This document shows positions 4,046-61,747 of a DNA stretch of 64,000 nucleotides, piece by piece. The notes beneath the pieces are model-generated. The model saw nothing but the letters and a program-made list of their open reading frames with translations. It did no database searches and was not told the DNA's origin. Where the stretch lies: NCBI GenBank assembly GCA_051294905.1, contig CM119371.1, forward strand, positions 30,692,001 through 30,756,000, in the 5' to 3' direction. Every line of letters starts with the position of its first letter. The stretch's first letter is position 1. The stretch is from Botryllus schlosseri (Eukaryota). A program made the position numbers and the translations under genes.

Positions 4046-4604
4046 CATATGCAATATGCATCATGGGTATCATGAGTGGTTTCTGGATGCGAATAACTAT
4101 GTCCGGTTTAAATACGATGCACATGGTTGTTCAATAATAAACCGACTTCACGCATCTCCCCAGAATATAAAACAGCCGCAAAAACTCAATAAAATCATTA
4201 CGGAGGAATTAAAATCAAATACCAATGGTTAAAACCTGATATATATCGCACTGATTAAAATCGACATTATGGACTTTCATCGGAGAGAACGTGGGAATAA
4301 CCAATATTTGCCAATAAATAATATTTCTCATAGTGTAACACTCTGTAGATTTTTCCATATCAATGTAAGTAAATTGAAAATCAATGATTTCGCAATGAGT
4401 CATGGTTTACTAGGGTGAAGTGAAAACAACTTTTTTTTTAATCGAAAGAAGGGGGTTCTTGAATTCCAACCAATGACCTAAAACTAAAATGACATATTTC
4501 TTTGAGAATTGCCCCCATGTTCTAGCCGTCCAAGCACTCAATCTGTGCACGCAAGGCGGCAAAGATGGCCATTAACAAACTAAATTAAATATAATATAGC
4601 TGAC

Positions 4605-6002
4605 CTTGGTAAAGATCGTTTTGTGATTTGGAGTAGACGACGCCTGCCACGAATCGTCGCACAACGGACCATCGTTCTTCATCGAGATGTTCTGCATCGA
4701 AGCTAGAGAACTCGTTGATCTTCATTTCTGCTATGAAAATCGCTGCCAGATATTCTTGAAAGCTTTGATGACAGAAAAAGAATCTGAAATTTCCTTGCAC
4801 CAAATGTTGGCTTAGTCGGTTCTTTCCCGGAACTTTCATCATCAAATCTTGGACTTCCTCTGCCGAAATTCCAAATTCCTTCAAGTCCTTCTCTTTGAAC
4901 ACGACCCGCCCTTCTCTCATGCCTCGAAATGCCAATGCCTTCAGTTTGTTGACGATCGATAAAATTTGTTTCCGACTTCGAATGTTTTCGACGTTTTGCA
5001 GAGCAGATATGATCCTGTTGTATAGTTCTGTTACCGTTGTTGGAGGAGGTTTATCTGGATCCCTTCCCATCACAACTGCCGTTATAATCAGTAAAACGGG
5101 CACAGAGATTAAATTCAGCAATCTTGGTGACATGGTTTCAATTTTCTGCCAGAGCTCCTCGCCATTCTCTTTGAGTAAAAATACAAATAACCTATGCGCG
5201 TCTTCAAACGTAAGGCCATTCAGCGTGATGATGGTTTCGGGTCGCGCCATCGCCGGTAACTCTGAAACCTTGAACTCACGTGAAGCTATGTAGACATTAA
5301 CGTGACGCAGGATATTCCGGGATAAAATGTTGTACATGACTGTCCAGCAACTTGCTTTTTCGTGTTTTCTGATTTTGCGTAGATTTTTCTCGTCAAAATC
5401 CCACCTCGCTTGATCGAGTCCGTCGAATATTAGGACTGCCTCGGATTGATGTTTATCCAGCCATTTAAATGCCTGATCCTCTTCGAATTCATTTTCGAAG
5501 AGCCCTCCAAATAAAAATTTTGATGGTTTAATATCGCCCTTAACTTCAACGTCTTTCAATTCAATATAATGGACCATTGTTCCACCGTCACAGGACAGAT
5601 CTTCAACATGCACAATTTTGGGGGATGCGCTGAGAGCTCGTCGAGCTATTCTGCGTGTAAGTGTGGATTTTCCCGATCCTGCAGATGCCACAATAGCGGT
5701 TATACCAACTTTTCCTGATGAGCCTGATTTTTTCTTTTGCCACATGGATGCCACTACGTCCTCGATCCCGATATCTTTCGCTTTAATTGTGTCCTTCTGC
5801 AAAAATCCAACTTCCTGTGTCAGCTGATTATGACCATAGCGGCCTTTGTAATAATCATCAACGTCAACTTGACGCATCTGTGGGTAGACTTCAAAATCCG
5901 GTTGCTGAAGCTTTTCATGCCGAAAATCATCAAGGATATCAATGGCCGTCACATCCATGGTATTTTCGTTGCAGATTTGTAATAACTTTTCGTTACTGAT
6001 AT
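4605..6002 (-). CDS. NACHT-domain exon of an NLR-like protein
   Basis: Within the 517-aa ORF: Walker A ASAGSGKST, Walker B AVLIFDGLDQ, sensor-1-like IASR, GLTFEDA, ISVPVLL, TTVTELY, LAFRGM and winged-helix FFFCHQSFQEYLAA. Splice sites tttcag|AT and CAAG|gtcag give a 1398-bp phase 1-1 exon. The ORF's N-terminal ~45 aa run into an intronic transposon end. Confidence 0.9.
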
Positions 6003-6065
6003 CTGAAAAATAATAAATGGAAATTATAGATATGAAAGATAGAAAAAAGTTCAAATCTACTACAG

Positions 6066-7266
6066 TAATGGTCGGGAACCTATGGCTCGCGAGCCATATC
6101 TGGCTCTTTTGGGTACAACATATGGCTCTTTGCCACATATATATTTTGGTACTGAATTGATCAATATTGCAGCGACGTGTTAGTAAATTTTCATCACGGT
6201 CAAAATAATTGTTGTCGTGACAGTATAAACATGTCTTTGAGAGGTAAAGACAATGCTGTCTTCAGGTTTAGGGGCTCGGACCTCCTCTTTTCAAAATCAT
6301 CAAATTTAAGTAACTGCCATGCCGGCGGTCAATATCACTTGCAAATTCTATGCGCCAGTATTTTTTGTGTTATACTGGATCCGAACCTCGGCTCCTGTTA
6401 ATTGGCAGGCTAATGATTAGTTCTCTGATTGCGCCGTCCATTTAGTTGCCTTATATAACGACTACTCGTGCTGTTAGAATGTTTCTTCTGTAATAAACGT
6501 TTATCGCGTGTCGGCATTGTTCCGTGGTGCAATAGGGAGTACAGACTCTGTATATCCTGGCGTGGTGGCAGCGATGGGATTCGAACCCACGCCGTCGAAA
6601 TGACTGGTGACTCAAACCTCCTGGCGATGTATCCGAAACGAAATATTGAATTGTCCGATACTTTGAATCAAAGAGCATAGCAGACATGGCGAAGCCCATT
6701 TCAAAACGCAGTTTTCAAATACACATTGTCTTCCTGATCTACGTCGCGAAATGAACAGTTGTGGATGTGATATTCCCAATTACAAACTCCAATTACAAGC
6801 AATGCCATAGCTATCCACGTTCCACGTTCTCCACGTTCTGTGTAGTACCGACGATAAAATGTATGTGTGTAGCGCAACGTTATGTTACCGCCGAATACTT
6901 TGAGAATTGAGAAGTCGATAAATATTTAGATTTTCGGAATCAGTGTGACAGTCCCATTTGAATGATATCAGTTATAATAAATTCTAAGCTACTTACGATG
7001 AATTGTGTTATCGTTGGTGGGGCTTGGCCAGTCTGCATCTTACCTCTCCTTTCGAGCTTTATTTTCCAACGATAAATGCCAGTTTATACACAGATAATGA
7101 GGTTAATACGAGGAATCCCATGTAGTGAGTTCAAATCAGTGCTATTATGACGTCACGAATTTCAAATTGTGACGTAACAGTTGATTGGTATGTAGGCTCT
7201 TTAGGAGTTGAGGTGGAAAAATAGGGCCAATATGGCTCTTCGGACAAAAAAGGTTCCCGACCACTG
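6066..7266. mobile_element. Non-autonomous hAT element, same family as 58770-59808 (opposite orientation)
   Basis: Ends (T)AATGGTCGGGAACC / GGTTCCCGACCACTG; shares TGGCTCGCGAGCCAT, GGCTCTT and GCAGTTTTCAAATACACATTGTCTTC blocks with the reverse complement of 58770-59808. Confidence 0.75.
6563..6618 (-). pseudogene. tRNA-Leu 3' fragment ending in CCA
   Basis: Minus strand CACCAGTCATTTCGACGGCGTGGGTTCGAATCCCATCGCTGCCA-CCA resembles the long variable arm, T-arm and acceptor 3' strand of tRNA-Leu; the 5' half is absent. Confidence 0.65.
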
Positions 7267-9178: not shown

Positions 9179-12100
9179 TTACAAATCAAGAATAACTCTC
9201 GGTTTACGAGTTCGTTTGGAGCGTCTCGGGTTATGAGGTCCATATTCCGGTAATTCACGGACTTCCGGAGAGGCATGACGCATTGCCACGATATTGTTTC
9301 TCGGAGGGCTTACTACCCTTTGATAATTGAAAGCAGGTACATCAGGTGTGATGCCAGGCTCGCTGTCTTCTTCAATTCCATACCTTGGTCGAAGTTGATC
9401 AATGTGTCTTCTCCACGTAGGACCACGCGGATGAACCATAACATTGACGCTGCGAGAACCAAATACCTTGGTAACTGTCGCAGGTACCCATTTGGGCTTT
9501 TTATTCTTCTTCGGCCCATAATACAGAGCATAACAAGGTGTGCCAACCGTGAATCGATTGACTGAAGCCTTTACTTGCTTCTCAACTTCTCTCACTTGCT
9601 TGCCTTGAGCTGCATGAGCTGGAGATGGCAGTAGCGTATCAATCATTGTTCGAATCTGTCTGCCATTGAGGAGCTGACTCGGAGATAATCCACTTGCAAG
9701 CGGCGTTCTCCTGTACAACATGAGGAATTCCTGTAATGCGGCCTTAGCCGGCAAACTTGATTTGCGTAGTGCGCGTTTGAATGAGTCAACCAGCTTTTCT
9801 GCGGCGCCATTCGTAGATGGGTGATACGGTGCACCTGAAAGGTGGATAATTCCTCTTTCTTTACACCATTTCTGAAACTCTTCAGACTTGAACGTACTTG
9901 CATTGTCAGACACAATGGTAAACGGATATCCAAAATGTGCAAAGTCCTGTTCCAGTAATCCGATCGTTTCCTTGCTTGAAACGGAATTGGTCGGGTGGAT
10001 GCAAGGATATTTAGAATACGAGTCCGTCAATACGAGCCAATTGGTTCCCATGAATTCGATTGCATGGTCGACATGAACTCTCATCCACGGCTTCTCAGGT
10101 AACATCCAAGGATGGATGCTTGCCTTCTTAGGAGCGTTCTGATTTTCACAGCATGAAACACATCTGTGACACGTGTCCACAATATCATTGTCCATTCGCG
10201 GCCAATACACAGCACTACGAGCAAGTTGCTTCATACGTTGCATTCCAAAATGTCCCAAATGAAGAATATCCAACACCTTTCTTTGCAGACTCGAGGGAAT
10301 TACGATTCTCGCTCCAGAAAACAAACATCCGTTTTCAACAGATAAACATGTGGATATCTTACGAAAATCTTCAATCGAATATCCTTGATCTTTGGTGCTG
10401 GCAACATTTTCTGGCCAGCCCACTCGGGTGTATCTCATCACAGCAGAAATGACAGGATCTTTGCTGGATTCTTTTGCCAATATACCAGGATCAGAAGGAT
10501 TAATCTGTTGGCTCACAGTACGTACTGTGCTAACAATGTTCATATTTTCCTCTTCCTCCCCTTTATCAAATACGGAGTCATGACTGAACGGAAGTCGACT
10601 CAATGCATCAGCATTACCGTGTTGCTTTGTATTACGATATTCAATATCATAATCGTATTGATTCAAAGTCAGTGCCCATCTTGCCAGACGATTTGCTGCG
10701 AGGGCCGGTATCGCTTTGCTTGGTCCAAACAATGCCAGTAGAGGTTTATGGTCAGTAACCAATATAAACTTTCTTCCATACAAGTATTGATGATACTTCT
10801 GGAGAGCAAAAATGATAGCCAAAGCTTCTTGGTGAATCTGGCTATACTTTCGTTGAGTTTCCGTCAACGTTTTGGACATGTAGGAAATTGGCTTCTCAGA
10901 ACCATCTTCAGAACGGTGAAAAAGTACGCAACCAATTCCTACTTCCGAAGCGTCACATGATAATCCTAACTTCTTTGTTGGATCAAAGTGAACTAGGAGC
11001 AAATCTGCACATAGCATTTTCTTCAATTCTTCGAATGAATCTTGCTCATCTTTACCCCAAAACCACGGGATTCCCTTTCTTGTAAGACGGTGTAACGGTT
11101 CCGTCACCGCTGACAGATTGGGTAAAAATTTACTGTAGAATTGTACTTGGCCCAGAAATGATCTGAGACCAGAAATGTTAGATGGAGCAGGCATTTTCAA
11201 CACTGCCTCCACTTTCGAACCTTTGGAAATACCGGCACTTGATAATTTGTGACCTAGGTATTCGACTGACGGTTGTGCGAATGTGCACTTTTCTCTTCGG
11301 CATCGGAGACCTTTATCTTGAAGTCTCTTCAATAACGCACGGAGATTATTCATGTGATCGGCGGCGTCGACGCCGCTGACCAAAATGTCATCCAGGTAAA
11401 CAGCTACACCTTTCAAGTCGGCAGTCATCTGATTCATGATTTCAGTGAAATAACCTGGTGCTGAAGAGATTCCGAAAGGTAACCTCATTTGCAGCAAGAC
11501 ACCGCGATGCGTGCTGAGAGCAAGTCTCTTTTGACTCTCTTCACTCAGTTGAACTTGGTTATAGGCATCAGCCAAGTCAATCTTCGTAAAACCATATCCA
11601 CCGCCCAATTTCTGCATGAGCTCTTCCGCGAGTGGAATAGGTTGTCTATGCGTTTCAAGTTGCGAATTAACTGTAACAGAATAATCGCCGCACACACGAA
11701 TCTTTCCCGATTTACTACCAGGAAGCGATCGTTTACGAATTGGAACAACTGGCGTACCATAATCATTAAAATCGACAGGTTGCCACACACCTTTGGCTAT
11801 CCCTACATCATACGATTGGGATAACTCATCACGGATAGCAAACGGTACTGGGCGATATTTACAGAAAATAGGTTTCGCATCATTTTTAAATCGAATGTCT
11901 AGCTTAACATCCTTTAAACAACCCAATTCAGATTTGAAAAGTTCTGGGAATTCGTTACTGATATCCTCACAGCGTTTGGCCAATTCCGAAAAATCAACAT
12001 TGGAAAGTGATTTTACAACACTGTTACCGTATAGCAGCGCATCAATTGAAATTCCCAACTTCAATATTCCACTACGGCCTATCAAGTTCAAATTCGGTAT

Positions 12101-13393
12101 ATCGGTAACTATAAATGAGAAATCGGATATTTCTGACCGATTGTTCACATCTGTCAGTGAAACATTCTTAGGTGTAAATGTACCTAGAGTGTTCAGTTTA
12201 TGCAAGGATGCAGATTCGAACTCAGCATTAACCTTTTGCATAGCAGGTCTTCCCAGAGCGATCCATCTGTCTTTGGACATGAAATTTTCTCTCGCGCCAG
12301 TATCCAACTCAAATGACTGGATGTCTTCATTGATATGTACGTCAATTTCGATTTCTGGATAGGAACGTGTATGTTTAACACTTCTAACGCGACGGTTCTT
12401 ACGAACACCTTTCTCCGTCAACCTATCTTTCTTCTTGATACGACATGCTGGTTGAATGTGACCTCTTTTGTCGCAGTAATGACAGACAGCATCTACATAT
12501 TTGCATTCATCAGGAGAGTGTCCGCACTTGTCACATCGAAAACACGCCTTTTCAGAGAGGTTTCTTCCTTCCCCTTCATATCCAGCAACTCGACTCTTGG
12601 AGTTCTGGGCGTCTCCTTTACTTTTCTTTGTATAAGAAGACTTTACCACGTTAGTTTGAAACGGGATTTCGGATTTTGCACCATAAACGGTTTCTTTTGC
12701 TACCTTGGCGGCATCTTCCGTATCAGTTGCTGTTTTGACAACAGTCTCGAAGTTCAAAGAATCGCTTTTCAGTTTAAATACTGCCTTTAGAACAGCTTCG
12801 TTTCCCACCGAACACATAAATCGCGTGGACATCGCTTCGTCCAACGGATTTTTAATTGAAGAAAAGTCACATGTGATCGCGTCTTGCCTGATACGAGCAG
12901 CTAATTCTGGTATGGTTTCACCAGGTTTGCGCTTCATGTCGCTCCAAAATTTGTAGCGTTCTCTAATCACAAATTGCTTCGGATCATAGTGCTCCTTCAT
13001 AAAAGCGTTGATTTCTTCCACGGAAAGATCATTAATCTTCTTAGGATCGGCCTGCTGTGCAGCTATGTTCTGCAACATCTTGTAGACCACTGGACTTTGA
13101 TTCGTAAGGAATACATGGGCCACTTTATCATTCGGCACAGAGTTTGCGCTTACGAACGTACCGAAGCGTTCCCAATAATCGGTCCAGAGTTCCGTTGTGG
13201 AGTCAAATGGAGCAAATGGCTGAACTGACATATTATTGCTGACCGGCGCAGTGGAGACCGCCTGAGAAGATATTTGACGCAGTGTCTCCATCCATGCTTT
13301 CATCTGCTGTTCGTTATGTGCCCTCTGCTCGTCCAACTCTTTACGCTGCTGTTCTAACTGTTCCTTAAGAACGTTAACGAGTTCTTCGGACAT
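9179..13393 (-). CDS. Gag-Pol polyprotein (2 CCHC knuckles, protease, RT, RNase H, integrase)
   Basis: Uninterrupted ORF, likely ATG at 13393 (MSEELV). CFRCDKCGHSPDEC and CHYCDKRGHIQPAC; LDTGA; RVCGDY...YLDD; CDASEVGIG...TDHKPL; H-H-C-C zinc finger and HVDHA...SDN...NGAAEK integrase core. Gypsy domain order; no env or chromodomain seen. Confidence 0.97.
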   Translation of the reverse strand: MSEELVNVLKEQLEQQRKELDEQRAHNEQQMKAWMETLRQISSQAVSTAPVSNNMSVQPFAPFDSTTELWTDYWERFGTFVSANSVPNDKVAHVFLTNQSPVVYKMLQNIAAQQADPKKINDLSVEEINAFMKEHYDPKQFVIRERYKFWSDMKRKPGETIPELAARIRQDAITCDFSSIKNPLDEAMSTRFMCSVGNEAVLKAVFKLKSDSLNFETVVKTATDTEDAAKVAKETVYGAKSEIPFQTNVVKSSYTKKSKGDAQNSKSRVAGYEGEGRNLSEKACFRCDKCGHSPDECKYVDAVCHYCDKRGHIQPACRIKKKDRLTEKGVRKNRRVRSVKHTRSYPEIEIDVHINEDIQSFELDTGARENFMSKDRWIALGRPAMQKVNAEFESASLHKLNTLGTFTPKNVSLTDVNNRSEISDFSFIVTDIPNLNLIGRSGILKLGISIDALLYGNSVVKSLSNVDFSELAKRCEDISNEFPELFKSELGCLKDVKLDIRFKNDAKPIFCKYRPVPFAIRDELSQSYDVGIAKGVWQPVDFNDYGTPVVPIRKRSLPGSKSGKIRVCGDYSVTVNSQLETHRQPIPLAEELMQKLGGGYGFTKIDLADAYNQVQLSEESQKRLALSTHRGVLLQMRLPFGISSAPGYFTEIMNQMTADLKGVAVYLDDILVSGVDAADHMNNLRALLKRLQDKGLRCRREKCTFAQPSVEYLGHKLSSAGISKGSKVEAVLKMPAPSNISGLRSFLGQVQFYSKFLPNLSAVTEPLHRLTRKGIPWFWGKDEQDSFEELKKMLCADLLLVHFDPTKKLGLSCDASEVGIGCVLFHRSEDGSEKPISYMSKTLTETQRKYSQIHQEALAIIFALQKYHQYLYGRKFILVTDHKPLLALFGPSKAIPALAANRLARWALTLNQYDYDIEYRNTKQHGNADALSRLPFSHDSVFDKGEEEENMNIVSTVRTVSQQINPSDPGILAKESSKDPVISAVMRYTRVGWPENVASTKDQGYSIEDFRKISTCLSVENGCLFSGARIVIPSSLQRKVLDILHLGHFGMQRMKQLARSAVYWPRMDNDIVDTCHRCVSCCENQNAPKKASIHPWMLPEKPWMRVHVDHAIEFMGTNWLVLTDSYSKYPCIHPTNSVSSKETIGLLEQDFAHFGYPFTIVSDNASTFKSEEFQKWCKERGIIHLSGAPYHPSTNGAAEKLVDSFKRALRKSSLPAKAALQEFLMLYRRTPLASGLSPSQLLNGRQIRTMIDTLLPSPAHAAQGKQVREVEKQVKASVNRFTVGTPCYALYYGPKKNKKPKWVPATVTKVFGSRSVNVMVHPRGPTWRRHIDQLRPRYGIEEDSEPGITPDVPAFNYQRVVSPPRNNIVAMRHASPEVRELPEYGPHNPRRSKRTRKPRVILDL

Positions 13394-13507
13394 GTTGGGT
13401 GTGGTAGTCACGCACTTGAAGATATGTACGTGTCACGAATAAAACTTAGTCGCACTGCAACCTCTTCTTGGAAATGTTGAAATAGCTCAGATCCTATATA
13501 TCACAGG

Positions 13508-52565: not shown

Positions 52566-53538
52566 CTATAGTGAGTATAGTCCGTTGAACGAAAATGCAT
52601 TGCTGTACATAAGTGTTTAGCGATGTATGTGTCGCTGAGCGCACTCTATCCTTTCAAGCTCATGCTATTAAGTGCTGCACTCTATAAGCGAAAAGGACGG
52701 GAATTTCCACCCGTGTATCACCCCTGATGTACGGTTGAGAATATACACCCATAACACGCGAAACCTGAACCTACCTTCGACTTATACCGTGGTTTATATC
52801 AAGTACAATGTTGTATCACATATTATGCATGCCCGTAGGAACCTGGGATTTAAGATCGCGATATCATTCTGATAACGGTTATCTTTCGTGTACCACCCTT
52901 TCCGGCCTTCTGAGTATGGATACGAATACTTGCTTTCTGATATTTGAATTCTGAAAACAATAAAGTGGTTTTAGGAAAAGCTAAAATCGATTATATGCGT
53001 ATAATTGTCATAAGAACCGCGTGAAATACGAATATTTTTCTTAGTTCTTGAGGGCATTTGTCACTCTGCGCTGATTACGTAGTTCAATATAGTAGATCAA
53101 CCTCCAATTAACTGCGAAAATGTTGCGACCGAACCACAAAGCCACTTTTTGAAACATCTTACTTGAGTACTTTTAAGACCTTTCCTTCTCGATTTCGTTT
53201 GATGTAGTTTTGACATTTGAAATTGATAAATCTGCCTAAATTGATAAGTAATTGACGGCGTTGATCGTATACTTGTACTCGCGTATCAAAGCTGACTACG
53301 TTGACCACCTCTGACTGATTGTTAGCGTTGATAAGGTTCACGCCATTGTTGCATGTGACTGTTATATGCATCAACTTTCGTCGTATGCAATACGTATAAA
53401 AGAACAATCTTATCAACGCTGGCAATGCTATCTAAACTGGACATCTGCTCGTATATCGTATGTCTGTTACATCTCAGAATCCAACCCAATTTGAATGAGC
53501 TACATATGTAATAGTGGGCGTTTTTATTCAGTAAACAG

Positions 53539-54536
53539 TAGGGATGGTGTGAACCTCTGAAAGATTCAGGTTCGTGTGAACGCGAACCTTTTTGAAAGGT
53601 TCTGTGTGAACGCGAACGCAAACCTCATGACGTCACATGACGTCATATTGCGAATTCAAACCCTATCTTTCAATGAAGTGATAGTCTATAATAATGTAAA
53701 CGATACCTAGCGACTACTGGGGCCCCATAATGACACTATGTTGAAGTACATATTGGCGTTTTAAACGTCGCTAAATGTATCATCTGAGGCAATCAAAGGA
53801 TACACTACTCCCATAAATCAATATCTTCCGATGCTTTGCCAAAAATTTCGACGAGGACTTACCAGGGAATATAAGCTTACGCCTTAACGGTCTAGGCCAG
53901 ACCGGACAATGTATTCGGTGTCTGAGTATTTGCTACATTGATATTGAGCAGAGTGCAGAACGGGTTTCTACACTTGCTACCGATATTACCCAATTAACAA
54001 GTAGGCTAATACAGCATTAACCAACACTTCAATCGCACGGATTTGGTGTTAACGATGCAGTAAAGATATGAAGTCAAGATTAACCCCGTACGCCTGCTAA
54101 ATTTTTTACATCACAAAACGATATCAATCTCATTGATTGGTTGAATAAGCATCATTCGCTGACTACGTATTTCGCTCGTGATGCTGTGTGATTGCGAGTC
54201 AAGCTCACAGCAGAGAGTCACTATGTATTCACAAACGGAAAGCTGAATATGTCGAGCAAACTTTTGTAACAAAACAAGTAAAACTTTTGAGATTGTCAAG
54301 GTGCATGGTCGTTCAGTTTGCATTTTTATGCTGCCACGGCCATGTATAGAGTGCTGGCTCGCAGTTGAAATGCAATAAATGTCAACCAAAGATGTTATAA
54401 TGAAGTGGAAGTTGTTATATATGAAAAAGGTTCACAGTGCAGAACCTACCAAGGTTCTGTTGTGAACGCGAACCTCTAAATTTCCGAGGTTCACACACAG
54501 AACGCGAACGTGAGCCTCACGTTCACACCATCCCTA
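53539..54536. mobile_element. MITE (hAT-like, TAGGGATG termini)
   Basis: TIR TAGGGATGGTGTGAAC / GTTCACACCATCCCTA; GTGAACGCGAAC subterminal repeats; TSD degenerate. Confidence 0.8.
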
Positions 54537-55765: not shown

Positions 55766-56125
55766 TAGGGATGGTGTGAACGCGAGGTTCACGTTCGCGT
55801 TCTGTGTATAAACCTGGGAAATTTCACGACAGAACCTTGGTAGGTTCCGCACTATGAAACTTTTTCATATAGTGCAATTTTCCCTTCATTATAACATCTT
55901 TGGTTCACACTAAACGAGCATGTACCTTGACAATCTCAATAATTTTACTTGCATTGTTACAAACGTTTACTCGAAATATCCAGCTTTCCGTTTGCGGATA
56001 TTTAGTGACTCTTTGCTGTGAGCTTGACGAAATCACATAACATGAGAGAGCGAAATACACTGCATGTAGTCAACGAATGATGCTTATTCAACCTATCAAT
56101 GAGATTGATATCGTTTTGTGATGTG
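55766..56125. mobile_element. Truncated inverted second copy of the 53539-54536 MITE
   Basis: Starts TAGGGATGGTGTGAACGCG and is the reverse complement of ~54105-54536. Confidence 0.75.
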
Positions 56126-56149
56126 AGCATTGAGCAAGTATGAAATAAC

Positions 56150-57504
56150 CGTCACTCCTTCGTTACTGAGGCCATTATCATGAATTTCAGCTCTCAGTGA
56201 TATGAGAAGAAGTCTGTTGGTCGGGGTCATTTCTGAGCAAACCATTCAACCCTTCTCCATTCCTTCCATGGCTGATGGAGCCCTGCACCTGATAAAACGC
56301 ACCCAGGTAATTAGCTATGCCATGTCTGTGGAGTGTGGAGTCGGTGAAGTTGTCCAATGCTAGGCTAAAGTAGTCTACGCGGCAACACATGGTTCAGAAA
56401 ATGCGACTGACATTGCTGTTACTCTTTTTCTCACGGTTGAATCAGACAACTGTAGCTTCGAAATTTGTCAGGTCATGTTGGCCTCGCTGCTAAGTTCTGG
56501 AAACAGCGAATATTCGCACGGCGTGTTGAAGTCCTATTGAAATCACACCCTCTCTAGCAAATTTCTTGGGCTTAGCGACATTCTAAGCAATTTTGAAAGA
56601 TGCGTCTGTAACGTCGCGGCCAATTTTAACAATGCCCGACTTATGGATTGCTGGGCTTGCCATCAAGCTAGCTTCGTTTTTTCTAAGATCAGGCCATATG
56701 TTAAACTCCAGAAGGGACATGCGTAGGCTAGAATCATTTCAAGCTTCGACGCTTCGGTACAACAACTGTTCTTTGACAAATATTACACATCGATTTTCCA
56801 TTTATATCTGGGAAAGCAAATTCATTGATCGACGCAGAGTTACAAACCCAGCTTTCGATGTTCTCGTTTCTAGTACTTGTTTCTGCTCAAACCATTTACG
56901 GTGTGTGAAACACTTTTTAAAAGTGTTCTACGCAGCGGGATTCTCTTGAAGCAGAGTGCAGCCGAATACCGATTCCAAACAATAACAATCTAAACTTCAG
57001 CATATCAAGAAACCAGAACACATCAAAGAATGAGTAATCAAACGAAACAGACAGTTTGTTTGTTTGTTTGTTTGTTTGTTTTTGGAGTATTCATGGTGTT
57101 TGTCGACTACTGTGGTCATTTACACCAGGCCGATATTCTTTGTATTTTCCGTAACTGCCGACTTATAGCACGGCCCACCTCTAGGCTTTTGTAAGGCACC
57201 GCTAACGCGGATGAGGTGGCGAGGAGGAGCCTAGGTAAACCTCCAACACTTAGATATCGGAATTCGGAAGTCGACCTCGGTCGGACTCGAACCCGTACCC
57301 ATTGGTGTTGTAGCCGCGGATTATACCACTGCGCTATCTCGCCACCGAAACAGACAGTGTGATAAGAAAGCTAAGTAGCTAAATTAATATGTAACAATTC
57401 TGTGCTAGTATAGTAATTGCTTCCGTAATGAAAGATGTCGCGGGCCGCAAAATAAACGTCTGAGGGCCGCATGCGGCCCGCGGGCTGCGGGTTGAGAACC
57501 CCTG
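56150..57504 (-). mobile_element. Decayed hAT (Buster/Charlie/GTF2IRD2-like) transposon with transposase N-terminal remnant; its terminus abuts a tRNA-Pro 5' fragment
   Basis: Minus-strand frames at ~56290-56900 give NGKSMCNICQRTVVVPK (BED-like), DASFKIA*NVAKPKK, LQLSDSTVRKRV and YFSLALDNFTD. Terminus GGTTGAGAACCCCTG at 57504. The other end was not found and the left boundary is approximate. Confidence 0.75.
57056..57345 (-). mobile_element. Full-length tRNA-derived SINE
   Basis: A/B-box head (GGTGGCGAGATAGCGCAGTGG...GGTTCGAGTCC), (CAAA)n tail, 13-bp TSD CGAAACAGACAGT (57043-57055, 57346-57358). Confidence 0.92.
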
Positions 57505-57620
57505 GCCTAGATCAACGAGGCGATGGATGCACTTTCTGAACTATTTTAAAATGTTTTATTTGGAAATGACTCCTGAAGTCATAAAAATCAGGGTTGATTA
57601 AAAAACTATAATCTCGTCAC

Positions 57621-58081
57621 GAGCTCGTCCAGGATTTGAATCCTGGACCTCTCGCACCCAAAGCGAGAATCATACCCCTCTAGACCAGTGGTTCCCAACC
57701 TTTTTCGACCGATCGCCCCCTTTTCAAGGCCAACACCGAACATCGCCCCCCAAATTTTGTGCACCGATAATTGGGCATACAGACTGTAATCACCGGCGGG
57801 TTGACTAAAAAGAAAAAAAGAAAAAAAGGTCATCTTTCTCCGCTCAGAGCTGAAAATAACGTTTTTTCTCTCCAAATTGCTAGGTGAATGACTAAAAAAA
57901 AAAAAAAAAAAAGGTCAGCCGTTTTGACGCGTCATCGCCCCCCTATCGCCCCCTTCGCTATTTTCGCCCCCCATCGTCCCCTTTGTCCATTTTCGCCCCC
58001 CTATCGCCCCCTTCGTCATTTTCGCCCCCCTAGATCGCCAAATCGCCCACGTTGGGAACCACTGCTCTAGACCAACTAGCC
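57621..58081 (-). pseudogene. tRNA-Pro(UGG) interrupted by a MITE
   Basis: 3' part 57621-57685 and 5' part 58065-58081 flank the insert. Confidence 0.85.
57686..58064. mobile_element. hAT MITE inserted in tRNA-Pro
   Basis: Perfect TIR CAGTGGTTCCCAAC / GTTGGGAACCACTG; TSD CTCTAGAC; internal TCGCCCCC repeats. Confidence 0.93.
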
Positions 58082-58179
58082 GATCAATGCACTTTCTGAA
58101 CTATATAAAATTGTTTTATTTGAGAATAACTCCCTAATTCATAGATATCGTGGTTAATGAAAAACTATAATGATGCCAC

Positions 58180-58303
58180 GGGCTCGTCCGGGATTTGAAC
58201 CCGGGGCCTCTAGCACCCCAAACGAGAATCATACCCCTAGACTCTAGGGGTATGATTCTCGCTTCGGGTGCGAGAGCTTCCGGGTTCAAACTCCTGACGA
58301 GCC
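58180..58303. pseudogene. Head-to-head fusion of two 5'-truncated tRNA-Pro copies
   Basis: A minus copy (58180-58242) joins a plus copy (58243-58303, CGG anticodon) through GAGAATCATACCCCTAGA-C-TCTAGGGGTATGATTCTC. Confidence 0.85.
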
Positions 58304-58403
58304 TGTGTCACGATTGTAGTTTTTCAATTAACCACGATATCTATGAATCCAGGAGTCATTTCGGAATAAATTTTTTAAAAATAATTCAGACAACGCATCC
58401 GTC

Positions 58404-58480
58404 GGCTCGTTGGTCTAGCTAGGGGTATGATTTTCGCTTTGGGTGCTGAGAGGTCCCGGGTTCAAATCCCGGACGAGCCC
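58404..58480 (+). pseudogene. tRNA-Pro(UGG) with +4 (CTAG) insertion in the D-arm
   Basis: GGTCTAGCTAGGGG instead of GGTCTAGGGG, plus an extra T in the anticodon stem. Confidence 0.8.
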
Positions 58481-58577: not shown

Positions 58578-58651
58578 GGCTCGTTGGTCTCTAGGGGTAT
58601 GATTCTCGCTTAGGGTGCGAGAGGTCCCGGGTTCGAATCCCGGACGAGCCC
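58578..58651 (+). tRNA. tRNA-Pro(AGG) variant with +2 (CT) in the D-arm; function doubtful
   Basis: GGTCTCTAGGGG; otherwise canonical. Confidence 0.7.
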
Positions 58652-58752: not shown

Positions 58753-59871
58753 GGCTCGTTGGTCTAGGGCAGTGGTCGGGAACCTTTTTCGACCGAAGAG
58801 CCATATTGACCTAATATTTCCAATTATAACTCCCAAAGAGCCATACATGTCAATCAACTGTTACGTCCCAATTGAAAATTCGTGACGTATTGATAGCACT
58901 AATATATGGGATTCGTAATGTGTGCCATATTTTTCTGCCCACATGCGACATGCGTAGGTGGAGCCAAACTACAGCAGTACATACCCACTGTGTGACAGCC
59001 TACGTCAGTGACGTGGGGTTAGCAGAGAAGAGTGCGGCAGTGCCTCACATGTCGTCAGGTATGATCGAGGGAGAATTGCGAAACCTATAATGGTTAATAG
59101 TATTTTTATCAATGTTTATGAATGATTATATTTTACACATTTCTGTTCCCAAAATCGCGGCATTTTCATATTTATTGTTCGAAAGTAATGCGAGAAAGAA
59201 AAGGTAACGCACAGATACCGCAACTCATCGTCAATACCTTGGAATTTATCGTCACTGATATTATTGAAATGAAATTTTCGCGCGCTGATTCCGGAAATCT
59301 AATTATTGACCGACTTCAAAAGTATTCGGCGTAACATAACGCTCTACTACACTCCTACATTTTACGGCGGTCCTAGAATGCTACTGACGTTATCAATCAA
59401 AAACTTGGATAGCTATGGTGTCGTTTTTAATTTGAATTTGTAATTGGTAATGTCACTTCCAATGAAGTTCATTTATCGGCGTAGATCACGAAGACAATGT
59501 GTATTTGAAAACTGCATTGTTAGCGTCGCCATGTTACGGTATCAATCAAGGTATCGTGCCATCCAATTTAAAAGCGCTCGATGACGGGTGGACTGAATTT
59601 GCCAGTGGTGTTAGTCGCCGGCGCGACAGCAACTTAAAAATATGTTTATGCTGCAACGAGATAAATTATTCGGGTCATCATGAAAATTTACAAACAAGTT
59701 GCTGCAATAATGATAAATTAGGTACAAAGTTAAAAATTTGTCAAAGAGCCATATCTTATACCCCAAAGAGCCATATATGGCTCGCGAGCCATAAGCTCCC
59801 GACCACTGGTCTAGGGGTATGATTCTTGCTTAGGGTGCGAGAGGTCACGGGTTCAAATCCCGGACGAGCCC
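58753..59871 (+). pseudogene. tRNA-Pro(AGG) interrupted by a 1039-bp hAT element
   Basis: 5' part 58753-58769, 3' part 59809-59871. Confidence 0.9.
58770..59808. mobile_element. Non-autonomous hAT element inserted in tRNA-Pro
   Basis: TIR CAGTGGTCGGGA / TCCCGACCACTG; TSD GTCTAGGG (58762-58769, 59809-59816). Confidence 0.95.
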
Positions 59872-59970
59872 GTGTCGAGATTATCTTTTTTTAATTAACC
59901 CCGATATCTATGAATCCAGGGGTCATTTCCAAATAAAACATTTTTAAATAGTTCAGAAAGTGCATCCATC

Positions 59971-60042
59971 GGCTCGTTGGTCTAGGGGTATGATTCTCGC
60001 TTAGGGTGCGAGAGGTCCCGGGTTCAACTCCCGGACGAGCCC
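59971..60042 (+). tRNA. tRNA-Pro(AGG)
   Basis: 72 nt, canonical except TTCAACT in the T-loop; T-run downstream. Confidence 0.85.
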
Positions 60043-60141
60043 GTGTCGAGATGATATTTTTTTAATTAACCCCGATATCTATGAATCCAGGAGTCATTTT
60101 CAGATAAAAGTTTTAAAAATAATTCAGACAACGCATTGGTC

Positions 60142-60213
60142 GGCTCGTTGGTCTGGGCGTATAATTCTCGCTTTGGGTGCGAGAGGCCCAATGTTCAAAT
60201 CGCGGACAAGCCC
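60142..60213 (+). pseudogene. Degenerate tRNA-Pro(UGG)
   Basis: Multiple substitutions in the D- and T-arms. Confidence 0.75.
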
Positions 60214-60312
60214 GTAGCACCCATTATAGCTTTTCAATAACCACGATATCTATGTATCAAGGAGTTATGTCCAAATAAATCATTTTTAAATAGTTCAGAC
60301 AGTGCGTTCATC

Positions 60313-60384
60313 GGCTCGTTGGTCTAGGGGCATGATTCTCGTTTCGGGTGCGAGAGGTCCCGGGTTCAAATCCCGGACGAGGCC
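60313..60384 (+). tRNA. tRNA-Pro(CGG) variant
   Basis: 72 nt, anticodon loop TTCGGGT, a few substitutions including one in the acceptor stem. Confidence 0.7.
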
Positions 60385-60483
60385 GTGACGAGATTATATT
60401 TTTTTAATTAGGCCCTATATCTATGAATCCAGGAGTCATTTCCGAATAAAATTTTTAAAAATAATTCAGACAACGCATCCGTC

Positions 60484-60560
60484 GGCTCGTTGGTTTAGCT
60501 AGGGGTATGATTTTCGCTTTGGGTGCTGAGAGGTCCCGGGTTCAAATCCCGGACGAGCCC
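60484..60560 (+). pseudogene. tRNA-Pro(UGG) with +4 insertion, duplicate of 58404-58480
   Basis: GGTTTAGCTAGGGG and the same GGTGCTGAG insertion. Confidence 0.8.
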
Positions 60561-61310
60561 GTGGCACCATTATAGTTTTTCATTAACCCCGATATCGATG
60601 AATTGGGGAGTTATTTCCAAATAAACCATTTCAAATAGTTCAGAAATTGCATCCGTCGGCTCGTTGGTCTAGGGCAGGGGTGGGCAAACTTTTGAGCTCG
60701 CGGGCCGCATTCAACATCTGAATCCATTCGCGGGCCGCACTATATAAAATTGGGATTATAAACCAAAATGCAATATTGGTATTTGATTATTGTGAGGACA
60801 TGGACATAATAGATATGCTTATTTAAAACAAAACAAACATTGCTTTGATGATATCATACACGCGTCAGAAACAGTGGCGAGATTTCATAGGCTGGTCAAC
60901 CTCAATGACCAATTTGTCAAAACTATAGAGATGAAAGTCGGTTGTCTCGATTCTTAGAACAGGATTGATATTTAAATCTGTGAGCAGCGATCTGTTCATA
61001 GATTTACTAATTGCTCTTTGGGTTCAGTTCCAGGACACACATTGCTAACAGCATCATAACCATGTTAGATTCAAACACGCTTCTACTATTTTCAGATAAA
61101 ATATAAATACCCTAAATCTATAAGCACGCCACTAAAATAGTTAAAGCTGGAGTGGCCAATCTGAAATCACACTCGTGATCAGAATTATGTCAATCTCGTT
61201 TAGGATTTCTGTGATTTTTAGCAGTTGAAACCTTCCAGACTCTGGGGGCCTTGAGATGGTCGCGTCATAAATTAAACATAAAACTAATATTGGAAGTATT
61301 TACCTTAGAA

Positions 61311-61638
61311 CAGTGGTTCTCAAACTTTTTAAGACACGCTCCCCTTGCGATGGTGAAAGATCTCGCGCCCCCTTATCGTCATATCACAAAACGCAACCAG
61401 GATGCTTGAAAACCTAACGGATAATTTGATGGCATGGAAGGTTACGTCTGTAGATGATAGATTTTTACATATGAAATTCAGACTAAATACAAAGCAATAA
61501 TTAGGAAGTGGGTTCAAATCGCGCGGAGCGCGAAAATTTTTTTCAGTCGAGCTCGGCTTCGCCTTCGCCCCATTCCGATGCCTTCACGCTCTCAAGGGGG
61601 GGGGGGGTGGGGCACGCCCGCCAGTTTGAGAACCACTA
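61311..61638. mobile_element. Nested hAT MITE
   Basis: TIR CAGTGGTTCTCAAACT / AGTTTGAGAACCACTA; TSD CCTTAGAA. Confidence 0.9.
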
Positions 61639-61747
61639 CCTTAGAATTATCATGGCGAAATATACTAAGTAAAAGTTTGATTACTTCCTGAATTAATTCG
61701 ATATTTACTACGCATTTTATCAATATTTTTAATAAGTTTCTTTAGAC

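Follow-up and report, generated by a model that had tools for sequence, protein, structure and literature searches.

The tRNA-Pro genes at the right end of the window (the whole 64,000-nucleotide stretch of Botryllus schlosseri DNA analysed here, C1:30692001-30756000 in a searched genome of 495.5 Mb and 219 contigs) change strand through a perfect inverted repeat at 58223-58261, and this palindrome was very probably made by a transposase, whichever route was taken. Two arms of 19 bp (58223-58241 and 58243-58261) face each other across a single C at 58242, at the place where a small minus-strand block abuts a plus-strand tRNA-Pro array of ~50 kb. The reading we favour, with about even confidence, is that the palindrome represents a hAT excision footprint formed between two flanks that were not partners, through two-ended excision of a hybrid or composite unit. 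The original prediction, made from the letters of this DNA, located the repeat, its 1-nt centre and its perfect pairing correctly, but gave the arms a length of 18 bp. It also described the array as switching strand at this point. This is true in that 57505-58241 is minus and everything to the right is plus, but the minus side is merely a block of ~740 bp and not half an array.

Both arms are tRNA-Pro remnants comprising nt 11-72 without the 5′ part. The left arm (X; 58180-58241, minus strand) has a nearest unit paralog that is 88-90% identical, and the right arm (P; 58243-58304, plus strand) is a decayed copy with four paralogs that are 96-98% identical per unit. Both start at tRNA nt 11, inside the 8-bp site GTCTAGGG. 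The core of the inverted repeat is composed of seven bases of each target duplication, the left in reverse complement, placed around the central base (plus strand CCCTAGA C TCTAGGG), and this central C stands where the paralogs of P carry G. Because X and P are 78.4% identical over 176 bp, they are different copies rather than the fold-back of one, which agrees with the earlier proposal that two distinct tRNA-Pro 3′ portions were fused head-to-head. This divergence also bears on the possibility of an assembly artefact. Palindromes are a known source of chimeric reads, and the head-to-head junction pattern, searched with a spacer of 0-12 nt, occurs a single time in the 495-Mb genome (control, 0), as might be expected of a misjoin or fold-back chimera. 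However, fold-backs give identical arms, X is unique sequence rather than a copy of another place, the window is free of N, and the join obeys transposase chemistry to the base. An artefact therefore can hardly be credited. A search of sequencing runs matched four runs from one sample and one run from a second sample, at 0.20-0.48 of the words and in every case as contigs, which carries no weight for or against the junction.

The length of the perfect arms is ordinary, since at least 19 bases from the junction start are identical in 28% of all pairs among 91 array units, and the strong fold predicted for the DNA of 58067-58420 (-112 kcal/mol, z -17.8) merely restates that two homologous units face each other. 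What exceeds chance is the position of the two breakpoints: by our own estimate, random breaks within a 171-bp unit would both hit the transposon target site with a probability of ~(2/171)^2, or ~1e-4. A break or template switch unrelated to transposase, which joined units of opposite strands at this site by chance or via the CTAG palindrome, nevertheless draws some support from two of three close tRNA-Pro strand switches, which lie off the target site. Head-to-head clusters 8.5 kb apart at C1:30656311/30664842 are off the site, as is a convergent switch at C8:27431 kb. This tally, which covers 14 of the dispersed places (drawn from the 100 listed of 116 matches) plus neighbouring stretches and is not a census, also tempers the original prediction, which was to be refuted if other strand switches in the array fell at random positions; one of the three is at the site. 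Element-internal deletions are common here as well, as illustrated by chimeric inserts of 1.7-1.9 kb and by a joint at 56124 (both described below). Even so, a CTAG-mediated switch would leave one shared CTAG, whereas both copies are kept. The self-complementary CTAG was therefore not used as microhomology, and a switch through it is excluded. Moreover, both breakpoints lie within 1 bp of an element boundary and the paralogs of P are occupied, and we regard an origin unrelated to transposase as highly improbable.

The array that borders the junction extends from window position 57505 to C1:30802335 and is on the minus strand only at 57505-58241. At the right end of the window, 12 tRNA-Pro genes were identified by ARAGORN in a tandem unit of ~171 bp, and plus-strand units of this length fill 59809-64000 and continue for ~46 kb past the window. 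Every tRNA-interrupting insert listed for this main array starts immediately after the 8-mer at nt 10-17, and each array unit offers 13 TA-centred 8-mers. Within the window, a 1039-bp non-autonomous CAGTGGTCGGGAACC-family element lies between GTCTAGGG duplications at 58770-59808, and a 2082-bp nested hAT-type insert with CAGGGGTGGGCAAAC termini (60675-62756) has GTCTAGGG duplications on both sides. Two plus-strand tRNA-Pro genes carry excision footprints at the target site, one of +4 (58404-58480) and the other of +2 (58578-58651). Our script could classify 97 sites in an array of about 108 units, as it missed those whose 5′ part is damaged. Of the 97, 25 are occupied by an element, nine have a footprint evident from length, and 63 are of normal length. 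Many copies arose by later duplication of array blocks, and thus the 25 occupied sites are not a count of events.

The elements of the array have short termini of the CAG(G/T)GG type. For the P-adjacent family, the end sequence is matched exactly at 1005 places in the genome. The first 30 of these agree with the target consensus nnnTAnnn, in that T4 is present in 30 of 30 flanks and A5 in 28 of 30. Five of the family's seven top genome-wide copies possess both termini, 1.83-1.90 kb apart, and matching 8-mers (four exact, one with one mismatch). Duplications of 8 bp of the nnnTAnnn type indicate Buster-type hAT elements rather than Dada elements, and on such sequence criteria we assign the array elements to the Buster type, to which the names Charlie and MER1 presumably also apply. 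TcBuster makes 8-bp nnnTAnnn duplications (PMC3499496), and the elements here share with the Buster/Charlie type the 8-bp duplication with a central TA and the short CAG(G/T)GG termini. A further likeness is that, in this genome, frames with a Spin-doc zinc finger (PF18658) have related ends upstream. At C16:19.52 Mb, a candidate for the cognate autonomous element, PF18658 is matched within a frame of 269 aa, and a terminus like that of the P-adjacent family (83-87% over 150 bp) lies 747 bp upstream of the match. A search with PF05699 recovered Ac-type hAT elements, and none of the 18 loci examined carries a terminus of the P-adjacent family. Separately, a tandem array of Buster-type elements occupies C11:11531342-11562782, where PF18658 is matched eight times, always within an open frame of 639 aa and mostly at a spacing of 4381 bp.

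The sequence GTCTAGGG occurs 5793 times in the genome and is followed by such a terminus in 125 instances. Of the first 100 of these matches listed, 20 coincide in coordinate with tRNA-Pro sites (two of the 20 may be duplicates), whereas such sites account for roughly 2% of all GTCTAGGG 8-mers as judged from 116 exact 5′ 15-mers. The tRNA-Pro position is thus an insertion hotspot, used roughly tenfold above its 8-mer share, and it is this pile-up at a single tRNA-Pro position that sets the elements apart from the Buster/Charlie-type elements described previously. Wider sequence context or open chromatin might contribute to a preference that goes beyond the 8-mer alone. Dada elements (PMC3706591, PMC8869645) are similar in that they insert at the A-box region of multicopy tRNA genes. 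However, Dada elements are described as strictly target-specific with 6-7-bp duplications (PMC3706591), whereas here the duplications are of 8 bp and most of the elements are located elsewhere than in tRNA genes. A Dada assignment was rejected on both counts, given the 8-bp duplications, the 1005 ends spread genome-wide and the absence of GTCTAGGG from all 30 flanks examined. The term ‘tRNA-Pro’ has no occurrence in PMC8869645.

That P was once occupied by such an element is indicated by its relatives. When the genome was searched with the junction region, the P unit was recovered in four further copies (96-98%), and the match to each begins precisely at the junction. In all four, a CAGTGGTCGGGAACC-family element end and GTCTAGGG precede the unit; three termini are intact, and one has decayed last bases. 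P and these paralogs differ from the array majority by 6-8 mismatches, against a median of 3, and group together in a single long-branched clade. To judge from these alignments, the P lineage is an old gene killed by insertion and duplicated later, and on the simplest reading the focal copy has since lost its element. The insert beside the P paralogs is a chimera of two elements joined internally. These chimeric inserts of 1.7-1.9 kb (C1:30765456-30767126, 30767635-30769522, 30782410-30784299 and 30794088-30795977) combine the left 666 bp of one family with the last ~1.2 kb of another and have unequal flanking 8-mers; they go back to one old deletion between two occupied genes, which was duplicated four times.

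The letters of the junction conform to the known products of hAT excision. These transposases leave hairpins on the flanks (PMC5499845), and excision of Ac/Ds leaves a palindromic footprint that has the complement of the element-adjacent base at its centre (PMC5873905). At the junction, remnants of the target duplication are present on both sides with small loss (seven of eight bases each), the element-adjacent base in the P paralogs is G, and the central base is C. The same rule accounts for three of the five kinds of footprint distinguished in the array. One of them, GTCTAG-AC-TCTAGGG, is at C1:30776738 and has the same right part as the junction; the others are GTCTAGG-C-CTAGGG at C1:30782219 and C5:24368858, and GTCTAGG-C-T-TCTAGGG at C1:30802139. 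The +2 and +4 types are plain trimmed joins. Hermes nicks one base into the flank, and a hairpin formed in this manner on P and opened on its 3′ side would give a plus-strand C. The earlier placement of the junction at a hAT target site is therefore upheld, with a hairpin-repair signature and a formerly occupied plus arm. The likeness to the footprints of Ac/Ds (PMC5873905) and TcBuster (PMC3499496) lies in target-duplication remnants on both sides and in the logic of hairpins followed by end joining, and with Ac/Ds also in the palindrome centre. The differences are that the flanks here belong to different genes on opposite strands, and that the palindrome runs for ~175 bp by gene homology, beyond P nucleotides.

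The same letters can also be parsed as X with eight bases and P with seven, such that one cut suffices and X need not have been cut. This opens the way to an explanation in which only P was cut, the opened hairpin arm annealed to the opposite-strand X, and repair either deleted the intervening DNA or copied the X block. Occupancy is supported for P alone, the central C fits a P hairpin opened on its 3′ side, and the perfect arm of 19 bp compares with hairpin arms of up to 20 nt at Ds excision sites in yeast, where use of microhomology is common (PMC5873905). Against this, a run of 19 identical bases is commonplace among unit pairs, the P element must have been severed at its other end as well, with loss of the flank there, and the copying form requires a donor of X that is absent from the assembly. 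We consider this one-cut explanation unlikely. A broader form of it is likewise unlikely, namely that, with many hAT families accumulating at one position of a multicopy gene, the hairpin from one excision, being complementary to every opposite-strand tRNA-Pro copy, could fuse or invert clusters without a second occupied site, with this junction as its fossil. If true, hotspot hAT elements would be a self-guided engine of strand switches in tRNA arrays.

The minus-strand block (57505-58241, ~740 bp) consists of two 3′ halves, two 5′ halves and one MITE. To the left of X lie the spacer and the 5′ part of the next minus-strand tRNA-Pro, Y (58065-58179), followed by a 379-bp hAT-type MITE (57686-58064) that interrupts Y at its target site and has CAGTGGTTCCCAAC termini together with an 8-bp duplication. 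The Y 3′ part, a spacer and an orphan 5′ part of a third minus-strand gene, Z, occupy 57505-57685 at the left end of the block. A minus-strand hAT-type element with a CAGGGGTTCTCAACC terminus sits at the target site of Z (56124-57504). This element is 72-84% like the 1.2-kb family of the array and is split by a SINE-like insert; identity at this level led us to reject a shared insertion with the 1.2-kb family, whether that of the array or that of a tRNA-Pro cluster on C2. The SINE-like insert (~57050-57345, minus strand) has a tRNA-like head and an (AAAC)n tail, and related pieces are present in other inserts. The element is cut off at 56124, without its far end or the 3′ part of Z, and is fused to a truncated copy of a hAT family with TAGGGATGGTGTGAAC termini (55766-56123). 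The joint is internal to both elements and has no terminus, and thus represents a deletion or a breakpoint that was not made at an element end. A non-autonomous member of the TAGGGATGGTGTGAAC-termini family is found at 53538-54536, and an apparently autonomous member with a 620-aa frame and an 8-bp duplication at C7:22227827-22230965.

Other features lie farther to the left. A unit of 4.3-4.8 kb is repeated in tandem about six times at 17232-42982. Its copies are 96-99% identical and each has a 49-bp minisatellite; they yield no Rfam match and include a single stop-free frame of at least 150 aa. A 1417-aa open frame at 9182-13432 (minus strand) encodes the reverse transcriptase, RNase H and integrase domains of an LTR retrotransposon pol, and a 558-aa frame at 4588-6261 (minus strand) has NACHT and NOD2 winged-helix domains.

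The history of X is less clear than that of P. Its best paralog is 88-91% identical, the assembly holds no near-identical donor, and its three mismatches to the array majority equal the median of 94 units. The proposal that X was itself an already dead, occupied gene is unsupported by this median decay, and the best identity of 88-91% led us to reject a recent inverted copy of part of the array as the source of the minus block. Cleavage at two occupied sites, as envisaged by the original prediction, thus finds support at P, where all four paralogs are occupied, but not at X, which lacks a close paralog and shows median decay.

Under the favoured reading of a two-ended excision, Buster-type elements would have inserted repeatedly at tRNA-Pro nt 10-17, duplicating GTCTAGGG, with P among the genes occupied; this first step is documented by the array and by the P paralogs. 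One mobile unit would then have acquired the minus-strand 3′ part of X as its left flank and the plus-strand 3′ part of P as its right flank. If two elements lay in clusters arranged head to head, their outer ends could have defined such a unit as a macrotransposon; alternatively, it could be one hybrid element that arose after an earlier inversion or the inverted insertion of a tRNA-carrying composite. The junction letters suggest that transposase cut both ends while seven of the eight duplicated bases stayed on each flank, that the hairpin on P was opened at least one base past its tip to give the central C, and that end joining sealed the flanks. The DNA between them, including both 5′ parts, would have left with the element, and no reciprocal junction is then expected. 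The length of the palindrome would follow from both flanks carrying the same gene sequence.

Several observations bear on this two-ended route. The head-to-head clusters on C1 noted above provide the precursor geometry for its deletion form. A cluster at C2:39119567-39125344 starts with a 3′ part and ends with a 5′ part of tRNA-Pro, and the same 8-mer, GCGTAATG, is located outside both outer termini (39119575 and 39125336, 5762 bp apart). This is a real tRNA-carrying macrotransposon, and it demonstrates that paired ends at tRNA-Pro sites move together. The earlier suggestion that transposons are restructuring the array thus finds an independent case in this 5.8-kb unit. Because the minus block shares the same shape, beginning with a 3′ part and ending with a 5′ part, it may be inverted cargo from which the inner element was later excised normally. 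Clusters that end in an orphan 5′ part or start with an orphan 3′ part beside an element end are candidates for composite transposition or adjacent deletion, and were seen at the right end of C1 and at C1:36056 kb, C7:4592 kb, C10:6957 kb and C8:17971 kb. The two-ended route is weakened by the lack of a close paralog of X, by its median decay, and by its being a single case in one assembly. To look for a reinserted copy of the excised unit, we searched the genome with the 1232-bp stretch of element that adjoins a P paralog. None was found among 40 scored of 3657 candidates, with 98% identity only for the array’s own copies and at most 96% elsewhere in those 40.

The original prediction put forward an inversion or a deletion by alternative transposition. 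In the inversion scheme, on a single chromatid or between sister chromatids, X-Y-Z were the first units of the plus-strand array, directly oriented element ends at X and P were cut, and the flanks were ligated head to head; the reciprocal breakpoint was lost later in the deletion at 56124. The corresponding reaction in rice yields a footprint between two unrelated flanks together with an inversion (PMC3239180), no pre-existing inverted cluster is necessary, and the closest matches of Y (89-91%) are units at the extreme right of the array, as would be expected of old edge units. However, an exact genome pattern for the reciprocal 5′/5′ junction with a spacer of 0-16 nt had no match (control, 2+2), where decayed junctions would be missed. 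In addition, none of the exact P-family ends listed falls in the ~215 kb to the left of the array (C1:30534657-30751786), an orphan 5′ half on the plus strand is absent from the ~78 kb leftward, and the near-identical plus-strand copy of X that the sister-chromatid form predicts does not exist. Since the deletion at 56124 removed DNA to the left, the absent reciprocal product is weak evidence. The lack of a reciprocal junction and of a near-identical donor of X (best, 90-91%) is nevertheless what an event of the loss type predicts. We regard the inversion as unlikely; no reciprocal junction matched, and the matches listed include no corresponding element end within 200 kb to the left. Nor is alternative transposition needed, because ordinary excision of a hybrid element yields an identical junction.

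Rearrangements of these classes have precedents. Macrotransposon excision and alternative transposition of Ac/Ds were reportedly treated by Huang and Dooner in 2008. The descriptions of Ac/Ds in PMC3239180 and PMC9910405 include macrotransposon excision, single-chromatid and sister-chromatid transposition, and the recombination of inverted elements with one another. The resemblance to those systems is that the ends of two elements act jointly, leaving a footprint between unrelated flanks and a deletion or an inversion. The present case differs in being a natural assembled product in an animal-like genome, built from non-autonomous Buster-type elements stacked in a tRNA array, and in lacking the reciprocal product by which its route could be named. 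In a literature search that covered few subscription journals, no published account of a tRNA array whose strand was switched by a hAT element came to light. Both the chemistry and the rearrangement classes are known, and the junction is a further instance of them, caught in a tRNA gene array.

With one junction, known chemistry and no sign of function, the significance of this finding is modest. Alternative transposition and macrotransposition have been known mostly from marked Ac/Ds lines of plants. The present array is a natural one in which the same nucleotide position bears witness to insertion, to ordinary excision footprints, to the transposition of a composite with tRNA cargo and to a footprint that joins two different genes. 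It shows that tRNA genes can be destroyed, moved and reoriented by hAT elements that are themselves non-autonomous.
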